From sequence record DRR723986_21860: a stretch of DNA of 64,000 nucleotides; one strand, 5' to 3'. The notes under the pieces were generated by a model. The model had not been told where the DNA came from and searched no databases. It saw only the letters and a list, made by a program, of their open reading frames with translations. Positions 780 to 50,000 of the stretch are shown here, in pieces (positions within the stretch are counted from its first letter, which is position 1; each line of letters starts with the position of its first letter). Made by a program: the position numbers and the translations under genes.

Positions 780-787
780 TATTTTTG
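780..787 (+). promoter_or_regulatory. Bacteroidota -7 promoter element (TATTTTTG) for the act-cox operon
   Basis: Matches TAnnTTTG; overlaps the ORF-track TTG start, supporting ATG 839 as the real start. Confidence 0.55.
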
Positions 788-838
788 TCGGTGATTAAGT
801 ATCTAGAATACACAAGCAAAAAGCTTAAAATTTTGCAA

Positions 839-2194
839 ATGAAAATATTAAAATCATTTATCTCACAGAGATTCAAGTCGTTAGCCTTAGCTGCGATTGC
901 ACTTCTTTCATTCACATACAACATTCATGCCCAAGAGGGTGATGTCGCTGCAGGTGAAGTCTTGTTTAAGGCTAACTGTGCTTCTTGTCACTTTCCTCAC
1001 AAGGACATGACGGGTCCTGCACTTAAAGGTGCAAGAGAACGTTGGATTGAAAATTCTACTGAAGAAAACTTTTACTCATGGGTGAAGAACTCTCAAAGTG
1101 TAGTTAAGAGTGGAGATTCTTACGCTAACTCTTTGTTTGCTGAATGGGGAAAAAGTGTGATGACGCCACAAGCGGTGAATGATCAACAAATTGATGACAT
1201 TTTTGCTTATGTGGAAGCTTTTGTTGAGCCAGTTGAGGAGGTTGTAGTGTCAGACGGACCTACAGGGTCAACACAGGAGGAAAGCACAATGATTTATTGG
1301 ATTCTAGCTACTCTTTTACTTATTGTAATTGGTGCAGTTGGAATGGCAAGAGGAAACTTGTCAAAAGCTTTAAAAGCTCAAAACGGTGAAGTAATCAATG
1401 ATAACGAAACTTGGGGTCAAGGTGTAAGATCTTGGGCTTGGGCCAACAGAGGTTGGGTTGGAGTTGGAACATTACTGATTGTGATTGTATTGCTAGTAAT
1501 CGGCATGTTAGATTTAATGAAAATCGGTGTATTTGAAGATTATAAACCTGAGCAACCAATTGCTTATTCTCACGAATTACACGCTGGTGACTTGGGTATC
1601 GATTGTAAATACTGTCACAATGCGGTTACTAAATCCAAACACGCTACAATTCCTACAACTAACGTTTGTATGAACTGTCATAAAACTGTAAATGAAGGTA
1701 CAACAACTGGTACTGAAGAAATCGCTAAGATTTATGAAGCTGCTGGATGGGATCCAGAAGTAAAAGCTTATACAGGTGTAACGAAGCCAGTTAAATGGGT
1801 GAAAGTTCACAACTTACCTGATCACGTATATTTCAATCACTCTCAACACGTTGAAGTTGGTGGAATTGATTGTGCTCAATGTCATGGTGATATGAAAAAA
1901 GAAACTGTTGCTCGTGTAATGACTACTGAGGATTTGAATGCAGTTGAAGAGAACAAAATCAAATTCACTAGACCGACTCTAACAATGGGATGGTGTATTG
2001 AGTGTCACAGACAATCAAGCGTAGATGTTGCTGGAAGTCATATAGACGGCGCAACTGAAGAAAATGATACTTACTATGGTGTGATCCACCAAAGATTATT
2101 GAAAGATAAGAAGACTTATCAAGGAATTTTAGAAGATGACATGATCACAGTTGCTGAATTAGGCGGACTTGAATGTGCGAAATGTCACTATTAA
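839..2194 (+). CDS. actA: Alternative complex III subunit A: N-terminal monoheme domain plus pentaheme cytochrome c
   Basis: Six CxxCH motifs (CASCH; CKYCH, CMNCH, CAQCH, CIECH, CAKCH), two TM helices between the domains, PEQPIAYSH and LPDHVYFNHSQH motifs; first gene of the act operon. Confidence 0.93.
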   Translation: MKILKSFISQRFKSLALAAIALLSFTYNIHAQEGDVAAGEVLFKANCASCHFPHKDMTGPALKGARERWIENSTEENFYSWVKNSQSVVKSGDSYANSLFAEWGKSVMTPQAVNDQQIDDIFAYVEAFVEPVEEVVVSDGPTGSTQEESTMIYWILATLLLIVIGAVGMARGNLSKALKAQNGEVINDNETWGQGVRSWAWANRGWVGVGTLLIVIVLLVIGMLDLMKIGVFEDYKPEQPIAYSHELHAGDLGIDCKYCHNAVTKSKHATIPTTNVCMNCHKTVNEGTTTGTEEIAKIYEAAGWDPEVKAYTGVTKPVKWVKVHNLPDHVYFNHSQHVEVGGIDCAQCHGDMKKETVARVMTTEDLNAVEENKIKFTRPTLTMGWCIECHRQSSVDVAGSHIDGATEENDTYYGVIHQRLLKDKKTYQGILEDDMITVAELGGLECAKCHY

Positions 2195-2221: not shown

Positions 2222-5200
2222 ATGGGAACAAATAAGAAATACTGGAAAGGTTTTGACGAGCTCGAACAAACTCCTGAGTTTTTAGAAAATGCTCAGAGCG
2301 AGTTTCCTCAAGAACTAAGTGTTGACCAATTTTTAGCTGATGATAAAGTCAGTGAAGCATCAACAGGACGAAGAGATTTTCTGAAGTTTTTAGGCTTTAG
2401 TGTTGCAGCTGCAACATTGGCTGCTTGTGAAGCTCCAGTAATTAAAGCGACTCCTTATGTTGTGAAACCAGAGGACGTAACACCAGGTGTTGCGAATTGG
2501 TATGCTTCAACTTACTATGATGGTGCAAATTATGCATCAATTCTAGTGAAATCTAGAGAAGGTCGTCCTATTCATATCAAAGGAAATAAAGATTGGGGAT
2601 TCACCAATGGTGCTGTAAACCCTCAAATCGCTGCTTCTGTACTTTCTTTATATAATGCTGATAGACTTGCATCTCCTCAAATTAACGGTGAGGCTGTTTC
2701 TTGGGCTGATGCTGACGCGGCAGTCGCTAAAGGATTAGGTGCAGTTGGATCAAAAAAAATTGCCTTATTGTCAGGAACAGAATTAAGCCCTTCTGCAATG
2801 ACTGCAATTCAAGGATTCAAAGCTAAATATGGAGGTGTTGAAATGCCTGCTGTTGAAAATGTAGATGTTGCTGCTGTGCCTGTTGAAGGTGAAGAAGGAG
2901 CTGCAAACGCAGAACAACAAGCAATGCTTGAAGTTCCTGAAGGAAAAGTGATTCATGTACAGTATGATGCTGTTTCATATAACGGAATTAGAGAAGCAAA
3001 CCTTGAGTCATTCGGAAAAAGAGTGATTCCTGATTATGATTTCTCTAAAGCAAAAGTAATTGTTTCAGTTGCTGCTGATTTCTTAAATTCTTGGGTTTTA
3101 CCAACGCAGTTTGTAGGTCAATATGCTTCAAGAAGAAATCCGGATGGTGAATGGATGTCTAAGCACTTCCAGTTTGAAGCAAACATGTCTCAAACAGGTT
3201 CAAACGCTGACTACAGAGGTTTAATTAAACCTTCTCAACAAGGTGCTGCCTTAGCTTACTTGCACAAAGCAGTTGGTGCTGGTGCTGTTAGCGGAGTAGA
3301 TACTTCGGCTTTATTACCAGAAACAATTGAAATTCTTGATAAAGCTGCTGCAGCTCTTAAAGAAGCTAAAGGGAAATCTTTAGTAGTTTCAGGATCAAAC
3401 AGAAAATCAATTCAAGTAGTTGTTAATTCAATTAACGCTCACTTAAATAATTATAGCGCTACTATTAACATGAATAACCCAATCATGTTACATCTGTCAG
3501 AAGATGAAAAAGTAGCAAACTTGATTAAGGATATGAACGCTGGAAAAATTGGTGCCATCATCATGTGGAATACCAACCCAGTTTATTCTTTAGCAAACGG
3601 AGAAGAATTTAAAACAGCATTAGCGAATGTTGGAACTTCAGTTTCAATGTCACAATTTGCTGATGAAACGGCTTCTGCTTGTCAAATCATTTGTCCAGAA
3701 AGTCATGCATTAGAGTCTTGGAACGATTATGCTCCTAAGATGAATTCTTATGCAATTGCACAACCAACTATTAGACCATTGTTTGATACTCGTCCTGTTG
3801 GAGAGTCGTTCTTAGTTTGGTCAGGTGCAGCAACGCATCAAGGAAAAGATAGCACAAATTATCACGATCATATTAAAGCGCTTTGGAAACAATACGGATT
3901 CCCTACGCAAACTGAGCATGCAACATTCAATGCATACTGGAATGCTATGGTTCACCAAAGTTGTGGATCAGAAGAAGGTGCTCCAAAAGCATCAGCTGTT
4001 TCATTCAATGGTTCGCTTGGTAAAGCTGGTAAAGATATCGCTTCAATTAGCGCTGGATCTTTTGAAATCGCATTGTATCAAAAAGCTGGAATCGGAAACG
4101 GTTCTCAAGCAGCTAACCCTTGGTTACAAGAGATGCCTGATACGGTAACTAAAGTAACTTGGGATAACTATGTAACCATGTCTTACGAAGACATGGCAAA
4201 ATTAGGTTGTGAAACTGGTTTAGGACAAGAAACACCTTCAACAGTTGTTTCAGTGAAAGTTGGAGAAACTACGCTAGACCTTCCAGCATACCCTCAAGCA
4301 GGTCAAATGCCAGGTACTATCGGTATCGCATTAGGATATGGTAGAGGAGCTGGTGCTGAAAAGATTGGAAAATCTGCTTATCACCAAACTGGTTATTACG
4401 GAGAATCTACTACTGAGCCAATCGGTAAAAACGCATTTAGATTAGTTGCTAACGGCGATTTTGATGTATATGATGCAGCTGTTTCTAAGACAGACGCAAC
4501 TTATAACCTTGCTTGTACTCAAACGCACAGTACAGTAATGGCAAGAAATTCTATCGTTAAAGAAACAACTTTAGATATTTACAAGCACCAACCAAAAGGA
4601 GCTTATAACCATCAGCATACTTTGCATATGGGATGGAACCATGAAGAGAAGCCAGTAGGTGAATTCGATTTATGGGAAGAGCATCCGGTTGAGCACGTAG
4701 GTCACAGATGGGGAATGACAATTGATTTGAGTTCTTGTATTGGATGTGGATCTTGTTTAGTGGCTTGTCAATCAGAAAATAATGTACCAGTTGTTGGTAA
4801 AGATGAAGTGAGAAGAGGTCGTGAAATGCACTGGTTGCGTTTAGATCGTTACTATGCTTCAGATATTGAGCCAGCAGTTGGAACAAGAGATCAGGAAGCT
4901 TTTGATGAAGGTGGATACGGTGCTTTAAAAACACCTGCCGCTAATCCGAAAGTAGTACACATGCCAATGATGTGTCACCACTGTAATCACGCTCCATGTG
5001 AAACTGTTTGTCCGGTTGCGGCAACAACTCACTCAAATGAGGGGCTGAATCAAATGGCTTATAACAGATGTATCGGTACGAGATATTGCGGAAACAACTG
5101 TCCTTATAAAGTAAGAAGATTTAACTGGTTCAACTATCCATCTTATAGAAAATTTGTTGAGGTAAACCCTGCACAGGATGATTTAGGAAGAATGGTGTTG

Positions 5201-5620
5201 AATCCAGATGTAGTTGTTAGAACTAGAGGGGTAATGGAGAAATGTTCTTTCTGTGTTCAACGTATCCAAGGTGGTAAGTTAGAAGCGAAGAAAGATGACA
5301 GAAAAGTAGTTGATGGGGATGTTGTAACGGCATGTGCTGATGTTTGTCCTACAAATGCAATCACAATGGGTGATTGGAATGATACTGAATCTGCTGTAAG
5401 AGCAAGTTCTGAGGATGACAGAGCATACCAAGCATTAGAAGAAATTGGTGTTAAACCAAATATCTGGTATAAAGTGAAAGTGAGAAATGAAGAGAATGAA
5501 GCTTTAGCTGCCATTCAACAAGATCACGGACACGGAGATAGCCATGGAGATGAACATGCAGAAGAAGGACATGAAGAAGGTGGGCATGAAGAGGTTGATA
5601 ACCACGGTGGAGGACACTAA
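2222..5620 (+). CDS. actB: Alternative complex III subunit B (Tat-exported lipoprotein; molybdopterin-oxidoreductase-like fold plus Fe-S domain)
   Basis: KKYWKG N-terminus, twin-arginine RRDFLK, lipobox LAAC, Fe-S motifs CIGCGSCLVAC, CHHCNHAPCETVCP, CIGTRYCGNNCPY, CSFC, CADVCP. Confidence 0.93.
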   Translation: MGTNKKYWKGFDELEQTPEFLENAQSEFPQELSVDQFLADDKVSEASTGRRDFLKFLGFSVAAATLAACEAPVIKATPYVVKPEDVTPGVANWYASTYYDGANYASILVKSREGRPIHIKGNKDWGFTNGAVNPQIAASVLSLYNADRLASPQINGEAVSWADADAAVAKGLGAVGSKKIALLSGTELSPSAMTAIQGFKAKYGGVEMPAVENVDVAAVPVEGEEGAANAEQQAMLEVPEGKVIHVQYDAVSYNGIREANLESFGKRVIPDYDFSKAKVIVSVAADFLNSWVLPTQFVGQYASRRNPDGEWMSKHFQFEANMSQTGSNADYRGLIKPSQQGAALAYLHKAVGAGAVSGVDTSALLPETIEILDKAAAALKEAKGKSLVVSGSNRKSIQVVVNSINAHLNNYSATINMNNPIMLHLSEDEKVANLIKDMNAGKIGAIIMWNTNPVYSLANGEEFKTALANVGTSVSMSQFADETASACQIICPESHALESWNDYAPKMNSYAIAQPTIRPLFDTRPVGESFLVWSGAATHQGKDSTNYHDHIKALWKQYGFPTQTEHATFNAYWNAMVHQSCGSEEGAPKASAVSFNGSLGKAGKDIASISAGSFEIALYQKAGIGNGSQAANPWLQEMPDTVTKVTWDNYVTMSYEDMAKLGCETGLGQETPSTVVSVKVGETTLDLPAYPQAGQMPGTIGIALGYGRGAGAEKIGKSAYHQTGYYGESTTEPIGKNAFRLVANGDFDVYDAAVSKTDATYNLACTQTHSTVMARNSIVKETTLDIYKHQPKGAYNHQHTLHMGWNHEEKPVGEFDLWEEHPVEHVGHRWGMTIDLSSCIGCGSCLVACQSENNVPVVGKDEVRRGREMHWLRLDRYYASDIEPAVGTRDQEAFDEGGYGALKTPAANPKVVHMPMMCHHCNHAPCETVCPVAATTHSNEGLNQMAYNRCIGTRYCGNNCPYKVRRFNWFNYPSYRKFVEVNPAQDDLGRMVLNPDVVVRTRGVMEKCSFCVQRIQGGKLEAKKDDRKVVDGDVVTACADVCPTNAITMGDWNDTESAVRASSEDDRAYQALEEIGVKPNIWYKVKVRNEENEALAAIQQDHGHGDSHGDEHAEEGHEEGGHEEVDNHGGGH

Positions 5621-5659: not shown

Positions 5660-7426
5660 ATGCATAAGGAAGCTGCGATTAGAGAACCATTAATTTTAGG
5701 TCACAAAACCTACAGTGATATCACTGAAGACGTTTGTAGACCTATTGAAGGAAAAGCGCCTAGAGCTTGGTACATCATGTTTGGTATTTCCCTTTTAGTT
5801 GGGTTATACGGAATTGGATGTATCCTTTACCTTTTAGGTACCGGTATTGGTACTTGGGGATTGAATAAAACCGTTGAATGGGCTTGGGATATTACCAACT
5901 TCGTTTGGTGGGTAGGTATTGGTCACGCCGGAACATTGATTTCAGCTGTACTATTACTATTCAGACAAAGATGGAGAATGGCGATTAACCGTTCTGCAGA
6001 GGCAATGACCATCTTCGCCGTATTTATGGCAGGTTTATTCCCACTAATCCACATGGGACGTTTATGGGTAGGATACTGGGTAATGCCAATTCCAAATCAA
6101 TTCGGTTCTCTTTGGGTTAACTTCAACTCACCACTATTATGGGATGTGTTCGCAATCTCAACTTATTTATCTGTTTCAGTTTCTTTCTGGTATATCGGAT
6201 TAATTCCTGATTTCGCAACAATCAGAGATAGAGCTAAAGGAGCTGTTTCTAAAAGAATGTACGGAATCCTTTCTTTCGGTTGGTCTGGTAGAGCTAAACA
6301 TTGGAATAGATTTGAATTGGTTTCATTAGTATTAGCAGGATTAGCAACGCCACTTGTATTCTCAGTACACTCAATTGTATCATTTGACTTCGCAACTTCA
6401 GTAATTCCAGGATGGCATACAACAATTTTCCCTCCTTACTTCGTTGCAGGTGCAGTATTCTCAGGATTCGCAATGGTACAAACACTATTGTTGATTCTTA
6501 GAAAAGGAATGAAGCTAGAGGCTTACATCCACACTAAGCACGTGGAGTACATGAACATTGTAATCATGGTTACAGGTTCAATAGTAGGTGTAGCGTATTT
6601 AACTGAGTTATTCATCTCTTGGTATTCAGGGGTTGAATACGAATCATATGCTTTCATTAACAGAGCAACAGGACCGTATTGGTGGGCTTATGCTTCAATG
6701 ATGACATGTAACGTTATCTCACCGCAATTAATGTGGTTCAAGAAATTAAGAAGAAGCTTATTGTTTACATTCTTCATTTCAATTGTCGTAAACATTGGTA
6801 TGTGGTTTGAGCGTTTCGTAATTATCGTTACTTCAATCCACCAAGATTATTTACCTTCTTCTTGGAGCATGTTCTATCCTACATGGACGGATATCGGAGT
6901 ATTCATTGGAACAATCGGAATCTTCTTCGCATTCTATTTAGCATTTGCAAGATACTTCCCAGTGTTGGCAATGGCCGAGTTGAAAACTATCCTTAAGATT
7001 TCAGGTGAGTCTTACAAAAACGATACTGCTGGAGGTCATGATGATCACGGTGGAGGAGATGCCCATGTAGAAGTGGCTCCGGTTGTTGAAGAAAAAGCCG
7101 TAGAGGCAGTAGAAAAGGTAGAAGAGAAAGTGGAGGAAATAAAAGAGGAGAAAATCTCTGATGAAGAGAAAACTAAAAGAATTTCTTCTTTAATTGAAAA
7201 GTTAGGAGCAGGTGATGCTACTGCTAAAGATGATTTAAAAGAGATTTCAGGAGTTGGTCCTAAAATGGAAGAAACACTGAATAGCATTGGGATTTACTCT
7301 TACGAACAAGTGAGTAAAATGACTGATGCAGAATACGAATTACTTGATTCAATTACAGAATCTTTCCCTGGCAGAGCTAAGAGAGATGATTGGGCTGGAC
7401 AAGCAAAAGGTTTAATGAATAAATAA
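5660..7426 (+). CDS. actC: Alternative complex III subunit C (NrfD/PsrC family, quinol-binding) with a C-terminal helix-hairpin-helix extension
   Basis: WDITNFVWWVGIGHAGTLISA, NRSAEAMT, HMGR and SPLLWD motifs; about 10 TM helices; extra DDLKEISGVGPK domain at the C-terminus. Confidence 0.93.
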   Translation: MHKEAAIREPLILGHKTYSDITEDVCRPIEGKAPRAWYIMFGISLLVGLYGIGCILYLLGTGIGTWGLNKTVEWAWDITNFVWWVGIGHAGTLISAVLLLFRQRWRMAINRSAEAMTIFAVFMAGLFPLIHMGRLWVGYWVMPIPNQFGSLWVNFNSPLLWDVFAISTYLSVSVSFWYIGLIPDFATIRDRAKGAVSKRMYGILSFGWSGRAKHWNRFELVSLVLAGLATPLVFSVHSIVSFDFATSVIPGWHTTIFPPYFVAGAVFSGFAMVQTLLLILRKGMKLEAYIHTKHVEYMNIVIMVTGSIVGVAYLTELFISWYSGVEYESYAFINRATGPYWWAYASMMTCNVISPQLMWFKKLRRSLLFTFFISIVVNIGMWFERFVIIVTSIHQDYLPSSWSMFYPTWTDIGVFIGTIGIFFAFYLAFARYFPVLAMAELKTILKISGESYKNDTAGGHDDHGGGDAHVEVAPVVEEKAVEAVEKVEEKVEEIKEEKISDEEKTKRISSLIEKLGAGDATAKDDLKEISGVGPKMEETLNSIGIYSYEQVSKMTDAEYELLDSITESFPGRAKRDDWAGQAKGLMNK

Positions 7427-7434
7427 TATTACAG

Positions 7435-7980
7435 ATGGCAGATAGAGTAATATACGCTACTTATGATGATGATCATACATTGCTAGTAGGTGCTAAAAAA
7501 TTGGTTGCTGAAGGTGTTCATATCACTGATGTGTTTTCACCATTCCCAATTCACGGAATTGATCCAGTAATTGGTGTGAAGCAAACGAGATTAGGAATCG
7601 TTGCAATGATGTTCGCAGTAACAGGTTTAATGCTGGCTGTAATAGGATTCAGATTTATCATGATCCAAGACTGGCCAATGAACATTGGTGGTAAACCTAG
7701 TTTTTCTTTATTGCAAAACTTTCCAGCTTTCGTGCCGATTTCATTTGAGTTCACAGTATTATTTGCTGCGCACGGAATGGCCTTAACTTACATGTTAAGA
7801 AATAAGACATTACCAGGAATGCCAGCTGATAACCCTTACTTAAGAAATACAGACGATAGGTTTACAATGGAAATCAGATTATCTGATAACCATGGGATGA
7901 CTTCTGACGAGTTACATGCTAAGATTAAGCAAACGTCAATCGTTGAAATTGAAGAAAAAGACTACGTTCAGATTAAATAA
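7435..7980 (+). CDS. actD: Alternative complex III subunit D (DUF3341)
   Basis: FSPFPIHG, DWPMNIGGKP and PAFVPISFEFTVLFAAH motifs, 2 TM helices, operon position. Confidence 0.9.
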   Translation: MADRVIYATYDDDHTLLVGAKKLVAEGVHITDVFSPFPIHGIDPVIGVKQTRLGIVAMMFAVTGLMLAVIGFRFIMIQDWPMNIGGKPSFSLLQNFPAFVPISFEFTVLFAAHGMALTYMLRNKTLPGMPADNPYLRNTDDRFTMEIRLSDNHGMTSDELHAKIKQTSIVEIEEKDYVQIK

Positions 7981-7986
7981 TATTTC

Positions 7987-8754
7987 ATGAAGATGATGAA
8001 TATAAAATATTTTGGAATGGCATTAATTGCGGGAACTATGGTTTCATGCGTTAATGATTCAAATTCTCCAGGACTAGAGTATATGCCAGATATGTACCGA
8101 TCTCCTGCCGTTGAAGCTTATGTAGATTACGGTGAAGTGAGAGGGGTTTACAATGAAGATGCGCACGCATTGATAGCAGAAAAGTTCTCTTTTACTCCTC
8201 CAGTAGGTACAATTCCTTACCAAGGGTCAAATGAGTATGCTTCAGTAATGATGCCTTATGAGCATGGAGCGCCTTTGAATGCTGATAAAACTCACGGTCT
8301 TTATGGTGTTAGACAAGATACTGCAGGAATTATCAATGCATCTTTTGATGTGAATCCAATTCCATTTTCTGATGATGTATTAAAAGAAGGGGAAGTATTG
8401 TACGGACGTTTTTGTATTCACTGTCATGGTGAATCAGGAGCAGGTGACGGAGGTGTTCCAGCTACTGGAAAATTCCCACCTCCAGGTGCATACAACGGTC
8501 CATTAAAAGACAAAACAGCAGGTGATATCTTCTATACAATTACTTACGGTAAAGGTGCAATGGGATCACATGCTTCTCAATTGAATAAAGAAGAAAGATG
8601 GAAAGTTGTTTATTATGTTCAAAAACTTCAAGGTAAAGATCCAGGGGCTGCTGTTGTAGTTCCAACAGGTGACGCAGAAGTTATTGATGGAGCTGAGTTG
8701 GTTGAACCAGAAGCAGTGAATAACGATAATGAGCACAACGAAGAAGGACATTAA
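7987..8754 (+). CDS. actE: Alternative complex III subunit E, monoheme cytochrome c lipoprotein
   Basis: Lipobox MVSC, YMPDMY, CIHCH, axial Met in GKGAMGSHASQL, ERW motif. Confidence 0.9.
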   Translation: MKMMNIKYFGMALIAGTMVSCVNDSNSPGLEYMPDMYRSPAVEAYVDYGEVRGVYNEDAHALIAEKFSFTPPVGTIPYQGSNEYASVMMPYEHGAPLNADKTHGLYGVRQDTAGIINASFDVNPIPFSDDVLKEGEVLYGRFCIHCHGESGAGDGGVPATGKFPPPGAYNGPLKDKTAGDIFYTITYGKGAMGSHASQLNKEERWKVVYYVQKLQGKDPGAAVVVPTGDAEVIDGAELVEPEAVNNDNEHNEEGH

Positions 8755-8782: not shown

Positions 8783-10003
8783 ATGGAATATCAAATTTCA
8801 TCAAAAGCTAAAAGAACAATATTTGCGACAATCGGTGTCGGGTTGATATTGTTTATTATCGGAGCGATCGTTGATAGTGGCTCTGAGCAATTTCAGACGA
8901 GAATGTTATCCAATTTTCTAATTGATGGATTCTTCTTCTTTGCTATCGCATTAGGTGCATTATTCTTTCTTGCATTGCAATATGCAACTGAAACAGGATG
9001 GTCTGTAGCCATTAAAAGAATCGTTGAAGGTGTCGCATCTTATGTTCAGGTTGGTATTGTTATACTGATTTTAGTATTCGCGGTAATTTCAATGATGTCA
9101 GGTGGATATACTGTAGATGCACACGGTCATCACGTTGGTCACATTTACCAATGGATGGACCCAGAGGTGGTTGCTCATGATACTATGATTGCTAACAAAG
9201 CACCATTCTTAACACAACCATTTTTCTGGATTGCGACATTAATTTACTTTGCTACTTACTTCTTATTCTATAAAGGTTTTAGAAAAAGATCTTTACAAGA
9301 GGATATTGAAGGTGGAACAGCTATTCACATGAAGAACTTTGCGAAAGGTGCATTATTCTTAGTGTTATTTGGATACATGTCATCAACTTCATCATGGCAC
9401 TGGATTATGTCGATTGATGCGCACTGGTTTTCTACACTATTCGGATGGTATACATTCGGTGGAATGTGGTGTACTTCAATGACGACAATCATGTTATTGT
9501 TGATTTACCTTAAAAAGAACGGATATTTAGAAAAAGTGAATGATTCACACATCCATGATGTGGGTAAATGGATCTTCGCAACTTCTTTCCTTTGGTCTTA
9601 TTTATTTTTCTCTCAGTTCATGTTGTATTGGTACGCCGATATTCCTGAAGAAGTAATATACTATGTTCAAAGAATCGAACAATACCCTGTAATTTTCTGG
9701 GGAATGTTTATGATCAACTTCATCATTCCAATGTTGATTTTGATGTCAAGAGAAGCGAAAAGAAATCCTGGAATATTAATGGCAGTTTGTGTAATCATCA
9801 TTTTGGGTCACTGGGCTGATGTATTCATGCTTGTTACTCCTGGATCCATGGGTGAGTTTGGAACTATTGGGTTAATTGAGGTAGGATTATTCTTAGCATT
9901 TGCTGGTGGATTCACATTCTTTATCCTGAATACATTGACTAAGGCTCCATTAATGCCTAAGAATCACCCTTATTTGGATGAAAGTAAACACCACGAGATT
10001 TAA
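8783..10003 (+). CDS. actF: Alternative complex III subunit F (NrfD-like membrane subunit)
   Basis: About 10 TM helices; WIMSIDAHWFSTLFGWY and FSQFMLYWYADIPEE motifs. Confidence 0.9.
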   Translation: MEYQISSKAKRTIFATIGVGLILFIIGAIVDSGSEQFQTRMLSNFLIDGFFFFAIALGALFFLALQYATETGWSVAIKRIVEGVASYVQVGIVILILVFAVISMMSGGYTVDAHGHHVGHIYQWMDPEVVAHDTMIANKAPFLTQPFFWIATLIYFATYFLFYKGFRKRSLQEDIEGGTAIHMKNFAKGALFLVLFGYMSSTSSWHWIMSIDAHWFSTLFGWYTFGGMWCTSMTTIMLLLIYLKKNGYLEKVNDSHIHDVGKWIFATSFLWSYLFFSQFMLYWYADIPEEVIYYVQRIEQYPVIFWGMFMINFIIPMLILMSREAKRNPGILMAVCVIIILGHWADVFMLVTPGSMGEFGTIGLIEVGLFLAFAGGFTFFILNTLTKAPLMPKNHPYLDESKHHEI

Positions 10004-10030: not shown

Positions 10031-11284
10031 ATGGGAATGAAATTAATTGTACTAGTCGTAATCGTTTTAGCAGTAATTGCTGTGGCGCAATTGATGCGTG
10101 TTTACGAACTTTCTGCCAAATTAAAAGGGCATAAAGAAGAGGAGGTTAACCTAAAGACAAACAATATGAATGCTGGCCTCATGCTTGTATTCATGGCTAT
10201 TTTCTTTGGCTCGTTAATCTACATGTTAGCAAAGTATGGTAATGGTATGTTACCTGAAGCAGCTTCTGAACACGGTCAAGATGTTGACTGGTTGTTCGGA
10301 TTGAACTGGGTAATTGTATTTACAGTTTACTTCGCCTGTAACTTCTTACTTTTCTATTTTGCATATAAGTATTCTTATCATCCAGATAGAAAGGCTCATT
10401 TCTTTCCTCATGATAATAAATTAGAAATGATCTGGACAGTAGTTCCGGCAATCGCTTTGGCTTTCATTATTATTTTTGGATTGATAACCTGGAACAAAAT
10501 TACGGGTGCACCATCAGATGATGCAGTTGTGGTTGAGTTATACGCAAAACAGTTCGACTGGACAGCGCGTTACTCAGGCGAAGACAATAAATTAGGTTAT
10601 GCTGATTACAAATTGGTAAATGGAGAAAATCCGTTAGGAGTAATCACTGCTGAAAACATTGACGCAAGAGTTGCTGAAATTGATGAAATTATCGCGGGTA
10701 ACCAAGCGGCATTGGATGGATTAGATTCTGGAACAGTGATTTTATCTGTTGCGAACCAAATCAAAATGCAATCAGAACTTGAAAAATTGGGAAGAATTAA
10801 AGAAAGAATTTTGACAATGGCTGAGACAATGGGTGACTCTGTATATACAATGGCTCAAGATGATTTCACATCAAAATCAGCTTTATTCTTAATAAAAGAC
10901 CAAGAGTATCAATTTATCTTTAGATCTAGAGATGTAATTCACTCGGCTTATTTCCCTCACTTTAGAGCTCAAATGAACTGTGTTCCTGGGCAACGCACTA
11001 AATTGAAGTTTAAGCCAATCTTTACAACAGCAGAAATGAAGGAGAAAACAGGAAATCCTAATTTCGAATATGTATTGATGTGTAATAAGATTTGCGGAGT
11101 ATCTCACTCAAATATGTGGCTACCAGTTAAAGTTGGTACTGCAGAAGAGTTTGAGGCTTGGAGAACAGACGGAATTAGCACAGCAAAAGTAATTGCTGAT
11201 CCTGCGGTTGAAGAAACAGCAGAGGTTATTGAAGAGCCTGTGGTTGAAGTAGAGGAAATTGTGGAAGAAAACGCAAACCACTAG
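10031..11284 (+). CDS. ctaC: Cytochrome c oxidase subunit II (CuA)
   Basis: LEMIWTVVP, AKQFDWTARY, DVIHS and CuA loop CNKICGVSHSNM. Confidence 0.92.
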   Translation: MGMKLIVLVVIVLAVIAVAQLMRVYELSAKLKGHKEEEVNLKTNNMNAGLMLVFMAIFFGSLIYMLAKYGNGMLPEAASEHGQDVDWLFGLNWVIVFTVYFACNFLLFYFAYKYSYHPDRKAHFFPHDNKLEMIWTVVPAIALAFIIIFGLITWNKITGAPSDDAVVVELYAKQFDWTARYSGEDNKLGYADYKLVNGENPLGVITAENIDARVAEIDEIIAGNQAALDGLDSGTVILSVANQIKMQSELEKLGRIKERILTMAETMGDSVYTMAQDDFTSKSALFLIKDQEYQFIFRSRDVIHSAYFPHFRAQMNCVPGQRTKLKFKPIFTTAEMKEKTGNPNFEYVLMCNKICGVSHSNMWLPVKVGTAEEFEAWRTDGISTAKVIADPAVEETAEVIEEPVVEVEEIVEENANH

Positions 11285-11334: not shown

Positions 11335-13125
11335 ATGTCAGCAGCAGCAGCTCACGATCACGGACATCACCACAAAGAAAGCTTCATCACGAAGTATATT
11401 TTCAGTCAGGATCATAAAATGATTGGAAAACAGTTTCTTGTTACAGCCATTGTAATGGCGGTGGTAGCAGTTATTTTGTCAGTATTATTCAGAATTCAAT
11501 TAGGTTGGCCAGGAGAAAGCAATAGTGCTTTATCATTTTTCTTAGGTGATACTTGGGCACCAAATGGTGTGCTTGATCGAGGTATGTATCTCGGATTGGT
11601 TACCATTCACGGTACCATTATGGTATTCTTCGTATTGACAGGTGGTTTATCAGGAACATTCTCTAACTTATTAATTCCACTTCAGTTAGGAGCACGTGAT
11701 ATGGCTTCTGGTTTACTAAATATGATCTCATATTGGTTGTTCTTTATTTCGTCTTGTTTGATGCTGTACTCTTTATTCATTGAGACAGGACCTGCATCTG
11801 CTGGATGGACGATTTATCCTCCATTATCAGTTTATGAAGAAACAATCGGTGGTTCTGGACAAGGAATGACTTTATGGTTATTGTCTATGACAATATTCAT
11901 TGCTTCATCTTTATTAGGTTCATTGAACTATGTTGTAACAGTATTAAACTTAAGAACAAAAGGAATGAAAATGACCAGAATGCCATTGACTATTTGGGCG
12001 TTCTTTATTACTGCGGTAATTGGTATCCTTTCTTTCCCAGTTTTAGTTTCAGCAGTTGTTTTGATGTTGATGGATAGAACAATGGGTACTTCATTTTATG
12101 TAAATGATACAATTGTTGGAACAGAAATTTTAGAGCAATCAGGTGGATCACCAATATTGTTTGAGCACTTATTCTGGTTCTTAGGTCACCCTGAGGTATA
12201 CATTGTATTACTTCCGGCGCTAGGTTTAACTTCTGAAATCGTTTCTACTAACTCTAGAAAACCAATTTTCGGATACCGAGCAATGATCGGATCAATTTTA
12301 GCAATTGCATTCTTATCATTTATCGTTTGGGGTCACCACATGTTCATTACAGGTATGAACCCATTCTTAGGAGGTGTATTCGTATTTACGACCTTGTTGA
12401 TTGCAATTCCATCTGCCGTAAAAGTATTTAACTACTTAACGACTTTATGGAAAGGTAACATCAAATATACGCCTGCAATGTTGTTCTCAATCGGATTGGT
12501 TTCATCATTCATCACTGGTGGTATTACGGGTGTTATCCTTGCGGATTCAGCTTTAGATATCGCAGTACATGATACTTACTTTGTTGTGGCTCACTTCCAT
12601 GTTGTAATGGGATTATCTGCCATCTTCGGTATGTTTGCTGGTGTTTATCACTGGTTCCCTAAGATGTATGGTAGAATGATGAATTCTAAATTAGGTATGG
12701 TTCACTTCTGGTTAACTTTAGTTTCTGCCTATGGGGTATTCTTCCCAATGCACTTTGTTGGAATTGGTGGAGCTCCAAGAAGATACTACGATTACTCTGT
12801 GTACGAGAACTTTGATACGAACCAATTAGAGATGATGTTGGATTTAAATCAAATCATTTCAATCTTCGCAATCATTGGAGCATTAGCACAAGCGATCTTT
12901 ATTTTTAACTTCTTCTACAGCACTAGAAGAGGTCAAGTAGCGCCGCAAAACCCATGGAAAGGAAATTCACTTGAATGGACTACTCCTGTGGAACACATTC
13001 ATGGTAACTGGCCTGGTGAAATACCAACAGTTCACAGATGGCCTTATGACTATTCTAAGCCTGGAATGGAAGAGGATTATTGTCCTCAAAACGTTCCATT
13101 GCAAGAAGGCGAAGAAGAACATTAA
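11335..13125 (+). CDS. ctaD: Cytochrome c oxidase subunit I, A1-type heme-copper oxidase
   Basis: HGTIM, GWTIYPPLS, FWFLGHPEVY (A1 signature), VWGHHMF, HDTYFVVAHFH, PRRY. Confidence 0.96.
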   Translation: MSAAAAHDHGHHHKESFITKYIFSQDHKMIGKQFLVTAIVMAVVAVILSVLFRIQLGWPGESNSALSFFLGDTWAPNGVLDRGMYLGLVTIHGTIMVFFVLTGGLSGTFSNLLIPLQLGARDMASGLLNMISYWLFFISSCLMLYSLFIETGPASAGWTIYPPLSVYEETIGGSGQGMTLWLLSMTIFIASSLLGSLNYVVTVLNLRTKGMKMTRMPLTIWAFFITAVIGILSFPVLVSAVVLMLMDRTMGTSFYVNDTIVGTEILEQSGGSPILFEHLFWFLGHPEVYIVLLPALGLTSEIVSTNSRKPIFGYRAMIGSILAIAFLSFIVWGHHMFITGMNPFLGGVFVFTTLLIAIPSAVKVFNYLTTLWKGNIKYTPAMLFSIGLVSSFITGGITGVILADSALDIAVHDTYFVVAHFHVVMGLSAIFGMFAGVYHWFPKMYGRMMNSKLGMVHFWLTLVSAYGVFFPMHFVGIGGAPRRYYDYSVYENFDTNQLEMMLDLNQIISIFAIIGALAQAIFIFNFFYSTRRGQVAPQNPWKGNSLEWTTPVEHIHGNWPGEIPTVHRWPYDYSKPGMEEDYCPQNVPLQEGEEEH

Positions 13126-44091: not shown

Positions 44092-47000
44092 GTGAATAAA
44101 GGTCTACTCATAACACTAACGCTTATTTGGGTGAATTGTTCGTTTGGACAAACCGACACTTCTAAGCTAAAATATCCCATCAAGGATTATTATGATTATA
44201 CCCAAAAAACAGATCCGCGTATCGGATTACAAGACCCTTCAAATTTAAATACAACTGTAGTTTATAATCCTGAAACTGGATTGTATGAAATCTATCAAAT
44301 GATAGGCGGTGTGCAATACAGATATCCAACGGCAATGACTCTAGAAGAGTACATGGCCTATAAAAGAGAACAAGCTCTAAAAAACGGATTTCAGGAAAAA
44401 ATCGAACAAGCCAACGACCAAGAACACGGTAAAAATCTAATACCAGGTTTAAGTGTTAAGAACGAAGCTTTTGATGTAATTTTTGGTGGTGACGAAATCA
44501 ACATTCGTCCGCAAGGTTCTGCTGAATTATCATTTGGGGTGAACATTTCTAAGTATGACAATCCGGTTCTACCAATCAAACAAAGAAGGGTAACAACCTT
44601 TGATTTTCAACAACGAATTAACCTAAACTTAGTGGGTCAAATTGGAGATAAATTAAAGTTGACTATTGCACAAAATACAGAGGCGACCTTTAATTTCCAG
44701 AACAACGTTAAAATTGAATACACTGGATACGAAGATGAGATTATCCAAAAAATTGAAGCAGGGAATGTTAGTTTACCATTAAACACAACTTTAATTCAAG
44801 GGTCTCAAAGTTTGTTCGGTATACGGTCAGATCTAAGATGGGGACGCTTCACCACTAATTTGATTCTAGCACAGGAAAAAGGTAAAAGACAAGAAATTAA
44901 CGTTTCAGGAGGAGCACAAGTTCAAGAGTTTGAAGTAAAAGCAGATAACTATGAGGCCAACAAGCACTACTTCTTAAATTATTATCATAGAGAGCATTAT
45001 GATGAGGCAATGCAAACCATGCCTTTGGTACAGTCTGATGTACAAATCACAAAAATAGAAGTTTGGGTAACCAACAGAATTAACAAAGTCGAGAACACGA
45101 GAAACGTATTGGCATTTACCGATTTAGGTGAAGAGTCTCCTGTGAATTATGAAGGAGCACCAACTGCAGTAATGGGAAGTACCGTACCTGACAATGATGC
45201 CAACTCGCTCTATTCAGATTTATCTGCCGCCCCTCAAGTGCGAGAGTTTTCAAATGCTGTACCATTTTTATCAGCTCTTGGACCAACGCAGTCTGGACCT
45301 TTCAATCAGGCAACTCACTATGAAAAAGTTGAGAACGCAAGACAACTTTCAGAACAAGAGTTCACTTACAATGCACAATTGGGGTATATTTCATTGAAAT
45401 CTCCTTTGAATCAAGATGAGGTATTGGGTGTAGCTTATCAATATACGTTTGGAGGTAAAACTTATCAAGTAGGTGAATTCTCAAATGATGTACCAGTTGA
45501 AGAGGGTTCAAAAAGTGCATTAATCTTAAAACTATTAAAGCCAACTATTGTTAATCCGGCCAACAAAACTTGGGATTTGATGATGAAAAACGTTTACTCA
45601 ATTGGTGCATACCAAGTGAGCCAAACTGATTTTATCGTTGATCTTTATTACAATAATCCAAGAACATCTGTTGACATCAATTATCTGCCTTATGATGGTG
45701 TAAATAATAAATTGTTGATGCAAACCATGGATCTGGATCGTCTGAACATCCAAAATAATTTACAGCCAGATGGTCGATTTGATTATGTTCCAATTCAATA
45801 CATGGGGAACAAAGCAACTAACGGAGGAACAATTGACCCAAAAACGGGACGTGTTTTCTTTACCACCATTGAGCCGTTTGGTAAAACTTTAAAAGATAAA
45901 TTGGAAGCTTCGGGACAACTTTCTAATCTAGAAGTTAATGGTATTGTGTATCAAGAGTTATATGATTCAACTAAAACTGCGGCTCAACAAATCCCCAATA
46001 AAAATAGATTTAAACTGAAAGGTGAATATAAATCATCCGTTAGTTCTGACATTTCTTTGAATTCTTTGAACGTTCCTGAAGGTTCAGTAACGGTGACTGC
46101 TGGTGGTGTGAAACTTACCGAGGGAACAGATTATACCGTAGATTACAACTTAGGTAGGGTGAAGATATTAAACCAAGGAATTCTTGAATCTGGCACACCA
46201 ATCAAAGTACAGTTAGAAAGTAATTCGTTATTTGGATTCCAGCAAAAGTCATTAGTAGGAGCGCATTTTAATTATGAATTCAATAAAGATTTTAATTGGG
46301 GTGCTACGGTGATGAATTTGACAGAAAAACCATTGACTCAAAAGGTAAATGTTGGAGATGAACCCATAAGTAATACTGTTGTAGGCACAGACATATCATA
46401 TCGTAGAGACGTTCCGTTTTTAACCAAATTGGTGGATTTATTACCGATTATTTCAACGAAAGAAAAATCAAGCATCAATGCTTATGGTGAATTTGCATAC
46501 TTAATACCAGGCACTCAACGAGCAATTTCAAAAGAGGGAATATCTTATATTGATGGTTTTGAGGGCTCACAATCGGCAATTGATATCAAAAACTTCTCAG
46601 CTTGGAAATTAGCTTCTGTACCTCAAGGTCAGCCAGCCATGTTCCCTGAAGCACACACCAATTTATCTAGCCTAAGTTCTGGATACAACAGAGCAAAACT
46701 AGCCTGGTACGTGGTGGATCCAACAACCTTTTATCAAAATTCAACAGTAACTCCTGAACATTTGCAGAATAACAATGACGTATTGTGTGATTCAAGATGG
46801 CACATCTTAAGTCAAACCGCATTATTCCCGCAACAACAACCTGTAACGGGTACCCTAAATAATATTCCAGTTCTAGATTTGGCATACTATCCATCTGAAA
46901 GAGGTCAGTATAATTATGATACCACTGAGACGTTTATTGATGCTGATGGTAAGTTCACCAATCCAAGTGACCGTTGGGCTGGAGTAATGCGATCTTTGAC

Positions 47001-50000
47001 CACTACAAACTTTGAAACAGCAAATATTCAATTTATCCAATTTTGGATGTTGGACCCTTTTAATGATGATGCAACTGAAGGTGGAACAACAAATATGGGA
47101 GGTGGAGATTTGTATTTCAACCTAGGTAATATTTCAGAAGATATCTTACCAGATTCGAGAAAAAGTTTTGAAAATGGATTACCAGCAAGTAGTAATTTTA
47201 CGGCGGATGACTATGATACTACCAAATGGGCCGTTGTTTATAACCAGCAGGTAATTGTCAATGCTTTTGATAACAATGTTAGTTCAAGAAGATATCAAGA
47301 TGTTGGATTAGATGGACTTTCAGATGCAGCCGAAGCTGCTTGGTTCAGTGATTTTGTGAACTGGGTAAATTCAAGTGGATTGAATGCGGATGCTAAAGCA
47401 CAACTGGTAAGTGACCCATCATCTGATAATTATCAATACTATTTGGATACACAACACGATATTGATTCCAACAACATTGTTCGTAGATATAAAAACTTCA
47501 ACGGAACAGAAGGGAATTCACCAACCGCAGAGATGTCAGATTCCATTACTGGAGGAGCAGGTTATACAATTCAAGCAACTACTACACCAGATATCGAAGA
47601 TTTAAATCAAGATAATAACCTAAGTGAGACTGAAAGTTATTTCCAGTATCATGTAAGTTTAAGACCGCAGGACATGCAAATAGGTCAAAACTTTATTACC
47701 AACGCACAAGTTGTTCAGCAAGATGATGCCTGTGGGGGAAAGACAGAAACATGGTACCAATTTAAAATTCCAATTGAAGAGTTTGATTCAAAAGTGAATG
47801 GAATAGCGGACTTTAGATCTATACGATTTATTAGAATGTTTATGAACGAATTCGATCATCCTGTGGTGGTTCGATTTGCCCGATTAGAATTGATTAGAGG
47901 TGAGTGGCGTAAATATCTTGATGATTTGGATGAGCCAGGTGAGATTATACAAGATGATCCTAATTCAACTGAGTTCAATATTGCAGCAGTGAACTTAGAA
48001 GAAAATGAAGGTAAAGATCCAGTAGGATATTGGACACCTCCAGGGATTTTAAGAGAGCAAGATCAAGGTTCAATTAACTTAAGACAATTGAATGAGCAAG
48101 CATTATCATTAGAGGTTTGCGGATTAAAAGACGGAGAGGCAAGAGCTGCATATAAAAATGTAAGCTTCGATATCCGATCATATAAGAAATTGAAAATGTT
48201 CATCCATGCAGAACAACAGCAAAAAGCTGGTTGGGTGGAGTCAGATTTACAAGATGATCAATTGACGGTATTCATTCGATTAGGAACAGATTTCGAAGAC
48301 AATTATTATGAGTATGAAATTCCTTTAAAATTAACGGCATGGGGAACTTCTCCAGGTTCTGACGCCAATGCCGATTTAATTTGGCCTACAGCGAACAATT
48401 TAGAGGTGGTTTTCGATTCGTTGACCCAATTGAAAATCTTCAGAGATGCTCTGGGTAATGTGCCAAATGGCACCGAGTATGTCAAGGTATTGCCGCCTGA
48501 TGCAAATGGAACCGTGACAAGAATTAAAGTAAAAGGAAATCCTAACCTCCAAGGAATGAAAGTGATCATGATTGGGGTTAGAAATCCCGGGAAAGATACC
48601 AATCACCCATGGATGGCAGCTGAAGATGGTCTGGATAAATGCGGAGAAGTTTGGGTGAATGAGTTGAGGTTGACTGACTTTGATCAAAGAGGTGGATGGG
48701 CAAGTACTGCTAGGGTAAATGTTCAATTGGCAGATTTCGCTACAGTGAACTTAGCGGGGAATTATTCTACACCAAATTGGGGGTCAATTGAGAAAAAGGT
48801 AAGCGAACGTCAAAGAGATACTCAGAAATCATTCGATTTATCTACCAACGTTGAATTGGGTCAATTTTTTGGTAGAAAAGCCAACATACAAGTGCCGTTT
48901 TATTATGGATATTCAGTAGCAGCTATTGATCCAGAATTTGATTTATTGGCTCCTGATATCAGACTGAACGAACTTCCACCTGATTTGAAGGCTGAAAGAG
49001 CCAAGATGTCTAGAGATTTGACAATCCGAAAATCTTACAATTTTACCAATGTCAGAAGAGAAAGACCTGCAGGAAAAGATGTACATTTTTGGGATATTGA
49101 AAACTGGTCCGCTACTTATTCTTACAATGAATTATACAGGCGAGATATCAACACAGAATATGACAGAACAAGAACCTGGAGGGGTGGGTTAAATTATACG
49201 TATTCTAACAAACCAATTGTAGTTGAACCTTTCAAAAACGTTAAGGCCTTGCGAAAGTCAAAGTGGTTTAGAATTATCAAGGACATTAACTTTAATCTAG
49301 GACCTAAATCATTTAGCTTTAATAATGACTTGACGAGAATGTATAATGAACGAAAAAACCGCGATTTATCTGGAGATTCATTGGCACCAGTCTTTGATCC
49401 AACAGTGTTAAAAAACTTTGCTTGGACAAGGCAGTATGACTTGAAATATGACTTCACTAAACAGTTGAAATTTACATTCAACGCGAATAACTCGTCTATT
49501 TTGACTGAACCGAACGGGGTAATTAATAGAAAATCAAATGACCCTGAGGAAATCGAGGCCTATAGAGGTTTTATAAATGCCTTCCAAAGTGCCTTTAATG
49601 GCCGAAGAGGTTCGTTTTTAGATTCTAATAATGTGATGCAGTATGTGGATGGAGCAGATTCAATTGGAGTAGGAGGTTACAACATGAACTACGGTCATGC
49701 GTATAACCTAACCTACAAGTTACCATTGAACAAAATTCCGATCACAGATTGGATATCTACCAATGTAAAATTAAGGGGAAGTTATGATTGGCAACGTGCA
49801 CCATTAGCACAACCGTTGTACGGAAATACCATCCAAAACTCTAGAAATTTCAGTGTAAACGGGCAATTAAATTTTGTAAATCTTTATAACAAAATAGATT
49901 ACTTTAAGCGCATCAATAATGATGGTAAAAAAGGCAGAGGAGGTAGAGGTCGCCAAACGAATGAACCGAAAAAAGAGACAAAAGAAGAGAAAGCAGAGCG

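Follow-up and report, generated by a model that had tools for sequence, protein, structure and literature searches.

What does the quinol-binding membrane subunit of a respiratory complex gain from a C-terminal domain that resembles a DNA-binding helix-hairpin-helix (HhH) module? The question is raised by a stretch of 64,000 nucleotides (nt) from sequence record DRR723986_21860, analyzed as a whole and called here the window, in which actC, the gene for the NrfD-like subunit of alternative complex III (ACIII), is read as one stop-free frame of 588 amino acids (aa) on the plus strand (positions 5660 to 7426; list of open reading frames [ORFs] and translation). A first-pass annotation, made from the letters alone, had described this ActC as fused to an HhH domain like that of COG3743 and had proposed that the domain was thereby recruited to a second respiratory complex. 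We find that the fusion is conserved, selected, and frequently lost and that it arose on two or more occasions, involving different subtypes of the domain.

The C-terminal extension of ActC

Residues 2 to 460 align without gaps and almost identically to the ActC of Flavobacterium johnsoniae (6btm_C; expect value [E], 2.5e-240), the match to 6f0k_C has an E of 1.6e-177, and the Pfam NrfD domain is recognized at 58.7 bits (cut-off, 25.8; E, 9.8e-16). The alignments to the four solved ActC proteins, 6btm_C (466 aa), 6f0k_C (484 aa), 6lod_C (471 aa), and 8k9e_C (486 aa), end at query residues 446 to 467, and the final 128 residues are extra relative to all four, which bears out the statement in the first-pass annotation that characterized ActC proteins lack the extension. 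No hydrophobic segment was found past residue 445 (maximum 19-residue Kyte-Doolittle hydropathy [KD19], 0.31). According to passages of two published sources, the N- and C-termini of ActC both lie on the cytoplasmic (N) side of the membrane (PMC5928083, PMC8076601). Because the ActC C-terminus is cytoplasmic, a second respiratory complex has acquired the HhH domain on its cytoplasmic side, as had been suggested.

Positions 7010 to 7426 encode residues 451 to 588 and the stop codon. The strings that had drawn attention to this region are all present, namely, GGHDDHGGGDAH at residues 458 to 469, a stretch rich in Glu, Lys, and Val, and DDLKEISGVGPKMEETLNSIGIYSYEQVSKM...FPGRAKRDDWAGQAKGL at residues 524 to 585. 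In an AlphaFold2 (AF2) model of residues 440 to 588, built on 21 fused ActC tails, the predicted local distance difference test score (pLDDT) is below 50 for residues 440 to 498 and 83 to 90 for residues 499 to 588. Residues 499 to 588 modeled alone (18 sequences) form seven short helices with a mean pLDDT of 93.7 and a predicted template modeling score (pTM) of 0.82. The tail is predicted to consist of a disordered acidic linker of about 50 residues and a compact, all-helical domain of 90 residues, which opens with the conserved helix ISSLIEKLG and in which G531-V-G533 sits between predicted helices. The hairpin glycine columns are invariant in two alignments (A1 and A3), and W578, Q581, and A582 beyond hairpin 2 are invariant as well. 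A two-copy model of self-association of the domain (alignment A3) scored 0.00 against a mark of 0.42, which counts neither for nor against it. The two halves of the linker carry net charges of -4 and -6, and its length and sequence differ among relatives; repeat slippage was rejected as the cause of this variation, with Tandem Repeats Finder (TRF) giving only two weak two-copy rows. An antisense ORF of 80 aa (7045 to 7287, minus strand) lies entirely within the purine-rich, linker-coding stretch of actC and shows no sign of being a gene.

Judged by sequence, the ActC tail belongs to one family with the extensions at the C-termini of alphaproteobacterial NuoE, bL21, uS2, PhaH, and Urf1/protein-O. 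Its best NCBIfam match is to NuoE PRK12373 (E, 5.1e-23), at profile positions 282 to 384 of 400, that is, the C-terminal end, followed by the C-terminal ends of bL21 PRK12278 (1.1e-15), the phasin PhaH (7.3e-15), and uS2 PRK12311 (1.3e-12); the matched profiles are NF009040, NF008915/6, NF045508, and NF008966. The similarity to the COG3743/PRK12373-type domain spans the whole module of about 70 to 80 residues, including its F-P-G-R-x-x-R-D-x-W-x-x-Q-A end. The tail also aligns residue by residue with two Protein Data Bank (PDB) chains found by sequence, 9wqv_a (2.3e-16) and 8yy9_O (9.9e-15). As far as the passages available from three papers go, these chains are Urf1 proteins, whose gene lies between nuoE and nuoF and whose N-terminal membrane hairpin sits in the complex of reaction center and light-harvesting 1 (RC-LH1) in Rhodovulum sulfidophilum or Dinoroseobacter shibae (PMC12079452, PMC12618627, PMC13066640). 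In a passage of one of them, the same domain marks clade-A NuoE and is cleavable in Rhodobacter capsulatus, citing Herter 1998 (PMC12618627). The resemblance to NuoE and bL21 extensions noted at first thus stands, and the range of carriers is to be widened to RC-LH1 Urf1/protein-O, bL17, bL27, uS2, and coiled-coil proteins, with two subtypes taken up by ActC itself.

Multicopy relatives found with the ActC domain exceed the Pfam thresholds of HHH_5, Cdd1, DUF4332, and IMS_HHH, while the single domain in the window reaches 23.3 bits against an HHH_5 gathering score of 27 (E, 9.3e-5); its Atlas neighbors are HHH_5/Cdd1 clusters at 0.90 to 0.91. An exhaustive HMMER scan with the domain returned 9,221 cluster representatives at an E of ≤1e-3 and 1,905 at an E of ≤1e-10. 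The best-scoring relatives carry the domain in tandem, with as many as 25 copies in an array, and coiled coils are the sole other recognizable feature in the 97 shortest of the 150 relatives listed. The COG3743 label, "predicted 5' DNA nuclease," is not applicable because the tail has no nuclease domain. A FEN-1-like 5' nuclease was rejected, the 138 residues of the tail comprising 90 of HhH domain and a disordered rest with no PIN-like catalytic part, and no nuclease family appeared in Pfam or NCBIfam scans of the tail at an E of ≤0.1. Fused proteins are already public under automatic names, such as that given by the Joint Genome Institute (JGI), [quoted passage not shown]

The predicted fold is (HhH)2-like. 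Two VIA fold searches agree in matching only HhH or SAM-like five-helix domains, all at a middling Z of ≤7.1; the PolQ, NusA, PolX, and Rad51-paralog domains superpose over 60 to 65 residues with a root mean square deviation (rmsd) of 1.9 to 2.8. The nearest is the C-terminus of the PolQ helicase-like domain (Z, 7.0; rmsd, 1.9; 60 residues), and the others include NusA AR1 (Z, 6.0), PolX (5.8), NusA AR2 (5.7), a Rad51-paralog N-terminal domain (5.3), and SAM domains (4 to 5).

Distribution, selection, and history of the fusion

When the tail was used as the query of a word-indexed search, 152 proteins were found, and 118 of 120 among the matches listed carry Pfam NrfD and are ActC-like. Full-length fused proteins are 540 to 610 aa long, shorter ones coming from short contigs, and the named sources include Winogradskyella, Aquimarina, Lacinutrix, Gilvibacter, Flavivirga, Gelidibacter, Flagellimonas, Maribacter, and Lutibacter, among others. 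The G-h-G and G-R-A-x-R motifs of the two hairpins are both present in all 118 ActC-type relatives among the matches listed, and G-h-G-P is followed by K in 92 of these proteins, by V in 13, and by Q in 12. A survey of 201 evenly chosen genomes from 29 genera of the window's family identified ActC in 183 and the domain in 59. The fusion predicted at first sight is found in 44 of the 183 ActC genomes (43 with the domain match inside the ActC match, plus G146, which was checked by sequence) and in 11 of the 29 genera; three further domain matches lie on contig fragments (G162, G159, and G039). The fusion is common in marine Flavobacteriaceae. In a phylum-wide sample, the domain occurs in 23 of 301 genomes, and sequence inspection places six of these copies on ActC, from two other families. 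The genome nearest to the window among those compared (G001; 44% of the window's sampled words shared, 400 contigs, 93% complete) gave no ActC match, whether the query was the tail or the complete protein, a result that carries no information on the fusion.

The dN/dS ratio (nonsynonymous to synonymous substitution rates) of the domain is 0.13 against a genome of the same genus (G033) and again 0.13 against G095, so the domain is clearly under purifying selection. Its dN of 0.115 exceeds the value for the membrane core (0.011) tenfold.

Within the window's genus, the fusion is common to the window and G033 only. The ActC proteins of G074, G105, G005, G056, and G091 end in short acidic low-complexity tails with no domain. 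That of G074 has a core 99.0% identical to the window's and yet lacks the domain; the DNA of the two is shared through the His-rich segment and then diverges, with an early stop just before actD. In a tree of the ActC core from 37 hand-picked sequences, among which carriers are overrepresented, the deepest branches belong to proteins with the domain, and proteins without it are nested among them at six or more points, a pattern that fits an old presence followed by repeated loss. Within the genus, the branching of the core tree is weakly supported (82 to 87% bootstrap) and a comparison of core and domain dS was saturated or noisy, so that either loss or regain may have occurred there.

The tree of 57 domain copies separates two subtypes, A (the window's) and B, with support of 100/100. 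Subtype A includes 29 ActC copies, 14 membrane-anchored coiled-coil or tandem copies, one bL21, and one bL17, and subtype B includes three uS2, three bL17, two bL27, two ActC (G146 and G343), and two others. Because both subtypes occur on ActC and are split at this branch, such a domain has been joined to ActC at least twice. The window's copy lies beside that of G033 and next to the genera that the core tree, too, places closest, a position expected under vertical descent. With either subtype as the query, the ActC tail was the sole copy found in G033, no copy was found in G074 or G005, and no ribosomal-protein fusion was found in the window's genus. Three copies elsewhere (L023 in G120, L032 in G003, and L033 in G057) keep the length of the domain and have both hairpins decayed (e.g., TGLDAAL for SGVGPKM, with G-R-A-x-R gone), and this joint decay suggests relaxed selection in these lineages.

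Carriers in the Bacteroidota besides ActC are bL17, bL21, bL27, uS2, and membrane-anchored coiled-coil proteins. The ribosomal-protein fusions (L036 to L045 and L053), from Flavobacteriaceae and other Bacteroidota, append a low-complexity linker and an HhH domain, mostly of subtype B. The "sunset domain variant" models that NCBIfam has for L17 and S2 cover only the ribosomal part and so were rejected as descriptions of the HhH domain. Eight anchored proteins (P0159, P0171, P0174, P0011, L051, L052, L054, and L055) start with a membrane anchor, continue as coiled coil for several hundred residues, and carry one or two copies of the domain at the C-terminus, with both subtypes in tandem in P0011; they look like a strut from the membrane to something else.

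Candidate roles of the domain

We favor, tentatively and at close to an even chance, the reading that the domain may serve as a dispensable cytoplasmic tether to nucleic acid. It would be involved neither in quinol oxidation nor in proton transfer. Held on a flexible leash, its two hairpins and the adjoining basic residues (K535; R572 and R575) would grip a polymer backbone independently of sequence, the polymer most likely being nucleic acid, either nucleoid DNA or RNA near the membrane, and the tether would keep ACIII-caa3 near the nucleoid or the translation zone. Similar tethering may be possible for the tandem copies on anchored coiled-coil proteins and for the single copies on ribosomal proteins. 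A polymer-type target is suggested because tandem arrays of up to 25 copies are what would be expected for avidity, and the partner would have to be something that every cell has, not another carrier, because G033 has the ActC tail as its sole copy. PhaM and PhaF, proteins of polyhydroxyalkanoate (PHA) granules, are known nucleoid tethers, and topoisomerase V of Methanopyrus has tandem HhH repeats that bind DNA at high salt. Nucleic-acid binding is favored because of the canonical hairpins with flanking Lys and Arg, the tandem arrays, the ribosomal carriers, and a parallel in Halomonas, where, according to a passage of the published account, COG3743 occurs on one PhaC2 and a histone-H1-like DNA-binding domain on the PhaC2 of another strain (PMC8686332). 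We take such a tether to be selected and yet dispensable because the dN/dS ratio is 0.13, while the fusion is confined to 44 of 183 ActC genomes and is absent from G074 with its 99% identical core.

Several observations weigh against a nucleic-acid tether. The domain has a net charge of -4 in the window and a mean of -1.9 (range, -6 to +3) across 75 ActC fusions, 49 match rows having been left out by a motif filter, and a mildly acidic domain behind a strongly acidic linker would weaken binding to nucleic acid. The nearest predicted folds include the protein-binding NusA AR1/AR2. All of the VIA Z scores are middling and fall below 8, under which the tool warns that a match may reflect a frequently seen arrangement, and with either model (tail or domain alone) Foldseek found nothing in the PDB at an E of ≤1e-3. 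In the portions of the three Urf1 papers available, the compact C-terminal domain lies past a long flexible loop, is invisible in the cryo-electron microscopy (cryo-EM) maps, and is called obscure or unclear in function (PMC12079452, PMC12618627, PMC13066640). Since close relatives do without the domain, any role would be accessory, and it is hard to see what a respiratory complex would gain from being tied to nucleic acid.

The principal competing reading is a protein-protein adaptor comparable to NusA AR1/AR2 or SAM domains, which would recruit a cytoplasmic protein to ACIII or link ACIII to another assembly; we regard it as possible, if on balance unlikely. NusA AR1/AR2, protein binders by their PDB titles (lambda N, the C-terminal domain of the RNA polymerase alpha subunit [RNAP alpha-CTD], and SuhB), rank second to sixth in both VIA searches (Z, 5.6 to 6.0; rmsd, 2.3 to 2.8; 63 to 64 residues), with SAM domains at a Z of 4 to 5; the domain is acidic, as the NusA repeats are; and the occurrence of the family on complex I subunits and an RC-LH1 accessory protein could mean a shared protein partner in energy metabolism. 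However, the canonical hairpin motifs are kept in 118 of 118 ActC-type relatives among the matches listed, arrays of up to 25 copies suit a polymer better than a single protein, the carriers are very diverse (ribosomal proteins, a phasin, and coiled-coil proteins), and the gene neighborhood, an ordinary act-cox operon, suggests no partner.

That the tail is a regulatory and possibly cleavable appendage seems improbable. A published passage does propose a modulating role, the Urf1 of Rdv. sulfidophilum is described in the passage available as cleaved in its loop, with the N-terminal part alone in the complex, and a long disordered linker would be an easy target for proteases. Against this, nothing about a domain behind some 50 disordered residues points to docking on the cytoplasmic face of ACIII, and its presence on ribosomal proteins and in 25-copy arrays fits an ACIII-specific regulator poorly. 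We give equally little credence to a near-neutral passenger, a mobile module that landed on a tolerant, disordered C-terminus, has no role in ACIII, and is now being lost. The many lineages that have lost the domain, among them all but two (the window and G033) of the seven members that the core tree places in the clade of the window's genus, the degenerate copies without both hairpins, and the tenfold higher dN of the domain would be expected of a passenger, but the dN/dS ratio of 0.13, the motifs intact in all 118 relatives among the matches listed, and retention of the fusion in 11 of 29 sampled genera and beyond the window's family argue otherwise, and the fact that a second subtype was independently joined to ActC at this very place argues for an advantage. 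An artifact, in which sequencing or assembly error joined two genes, had been named as what would undo the claim of a fusion; it can be considered virtually impossible, since the same single frame recurs in 44 family genomes and 118 database proteins, including the same-genus G033 with synonymous differences throughout, the dN/dS ratio is 0.13, and no separate ORF for the domain was found in relatives without the fused copy.

A broader proposal can be framed, which we consider unlikely as it stands: the COG3743-type (HhH)2 domain may be a general "address tag" that fastens large assemblies of energy conversion and biosynthesis to one shared scaffold in the cytoplasm, either the nucleoid or nucleic acid close to the membrane. 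Such a tag would cover complex I (NuoE), RC-LH1 (Urf1), ACIII (ActC), ribosomes (bL17, bL21, bL27, and uS2), and PHA granules (PhaH and PhaC2). The scaffold would then set the cellular place of respiration, photosynthesis, and translation, and the double acquisition by ActC would mark selection for such placement.

Genomic setting and comparison with known systems

The actC gene is a member of a compact predicted operon, actABCDEF-coxII-coxI (Table 1). A short His- and acid-rich stretch stands at the end or start of most subunits encoded by this ACIII-caa3 operon, except ActA and ActD. It is found at the C-terminus of ActB (5520 to 5617), at residues 458 to 469 of ActC (7031 to 7066), at the C-termini of ActE, ActF, CoxII, and CoxI, and at the N-terminus of CoxI (11335 to 11380), with 8 His within the final 33 residues of ActB and 5 within the initial 14 of CoxI. 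These stretches could be involved in metal binding or be a compositional habit; the His/Gly segment of ActC is kept in same-genus relatives even without the HhH domain. Further along the window lies an ORF of 2,514 aa (44092 to 51636, plus strand), and no tRNA genes were found in the window.

Table 1. Positions of actC, its parts, and the neighboring genes in the window
Feature	Position	Strand	Description and evidence
actC	5660..7426	+	588 codons and stop; NrfD-like quinol-binding ACIII subunit with C-terminal extension; ORF list, translation, Pfam NrfD, 6btm_C
ActC membrane core, residues 1-450	5660..7009	+	Homolog of the ten-helix ActC in solved ACIII; alignments to 6btm_C and 6f0k_C
Acidic linker, residues 451-498	7010..7153	+	His/Gly-rich, then Glu/Lys/Val-rich; predicted disordered (AF2)
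(HhH)2-like domain, residues 499-588	7154..7423	+	Predicted N-terminal helix and five-helix HhH core; AF2, NCBIfam/PDB sequence matches, VIA, dN/dS
Hairpin 1, G531-V-G533, then P-K	7250..7258	+	Motif count, alignments
Hairpin 2, G571-R-A-K-R575, then D-D-W	7370..7384	+	Motif count, alignments
actA	785-2194	+	Multiheme cytochrome c; Pfam Cytochrome_C7/CIII families
actB	2222-5620	+	Fe-S/molybdopterin-like; Pfam Fer4 families
actD	7435-7980	+	Pfam ActD, 3.9e-48; begins 8 nt after actC
actE	7987-8754	+	Pfam cytochrome c
actF	8783-10003	+	6btm_F; E, 2.6e-81
coxII	10031-11284	+	Pfam COX2_TM/COX2
coxI	11335-13125	+	Pfam COX1, 8.9e-139

In the usual view, ACIII consists of a proton-translocating membrane core and, on it, an electron-transfer module that faces the periplasm, with a small and featureless cytoplasmic face. 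About a quarter of the sampled Flavobacteriaceae hang a conserved domain of DNA-binding type off that face. That ribosomal proteins and three unrelated energy-converting complexes have this appendage in common suggests an unrecognized layer of spatial organization or regulation, and sister species whose ActC cores are 99% identical, with and without the domain, offer a natural experiment that makes the function of the domain family testable. While ACIII and the HhH family are both known, the literature searched has no description of the two combined, of the patchy occurrence of the fusion, or of its double recruitment. No paper combining ACIII with an HhH domain was found there, where the supplements of PMC12079452, PMC12618627, and PMC13066640 may list further carriers, and the passages available from a review of NrfD-like subunits (PMC8076601) mention no fusion, extension, or helix-hairpin. 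No functional study was apparent in the literature on PRK12373 and DUF4332, and that on HhH domains with NuoE or ribosomal extensions, the sunset domain, and 9L94 (an eL32 HhH ribosome) held nothing relevant to this domain.

Set against known systems, the locus is familiar in its core and departs from it in the tail. As in the ACIII of F. johnsoniae (6BTM), actABCDEF is followed by cox genes in the same operon order. The solved ActC proteins (6BTM, 6F0K, 6LOD, and 8K9E) end a few residues past the last membrane helix, whereas that of the window adds the predicted disordered linker and HhH domain. The predicted domain shares with the (HhH)2 domains of NusA AR1/AR2, PolQ, PolX, and the Rad51 paralog a canonical G-h-G in hairpin 1, but the sequence identity is 10 to 21%, an extra N-terminal helix is packed against the core, and hairpin 2 bears the family-specific G-R-A-x-R-D-D-W. 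The bL17, bL27, uS2, and bL21 fusions follow the same plan of a conserved protein, a low-complexity linker, and a C-terminal HhH domain; unlike the domain of the window, subtype B of the ribosomal carriers has an added C-terminal helix (...W.EL..WQDEL.GG). The architecture is also like that of clade-A NuoE and Urf1 (protein-O, protein-LRC, and the parent of protein-3h), in which part of a membrane complex likewise continues through a long flexible loop into a compact cytoplasmic C-terminal domain. In the window, by contrast, the carrier is the ten-helix quinol-binding subunit of ACIII in the Bacteroidota and not a subunit of alphaproteobacterial complex I or an RC-LH1 accessory protein.

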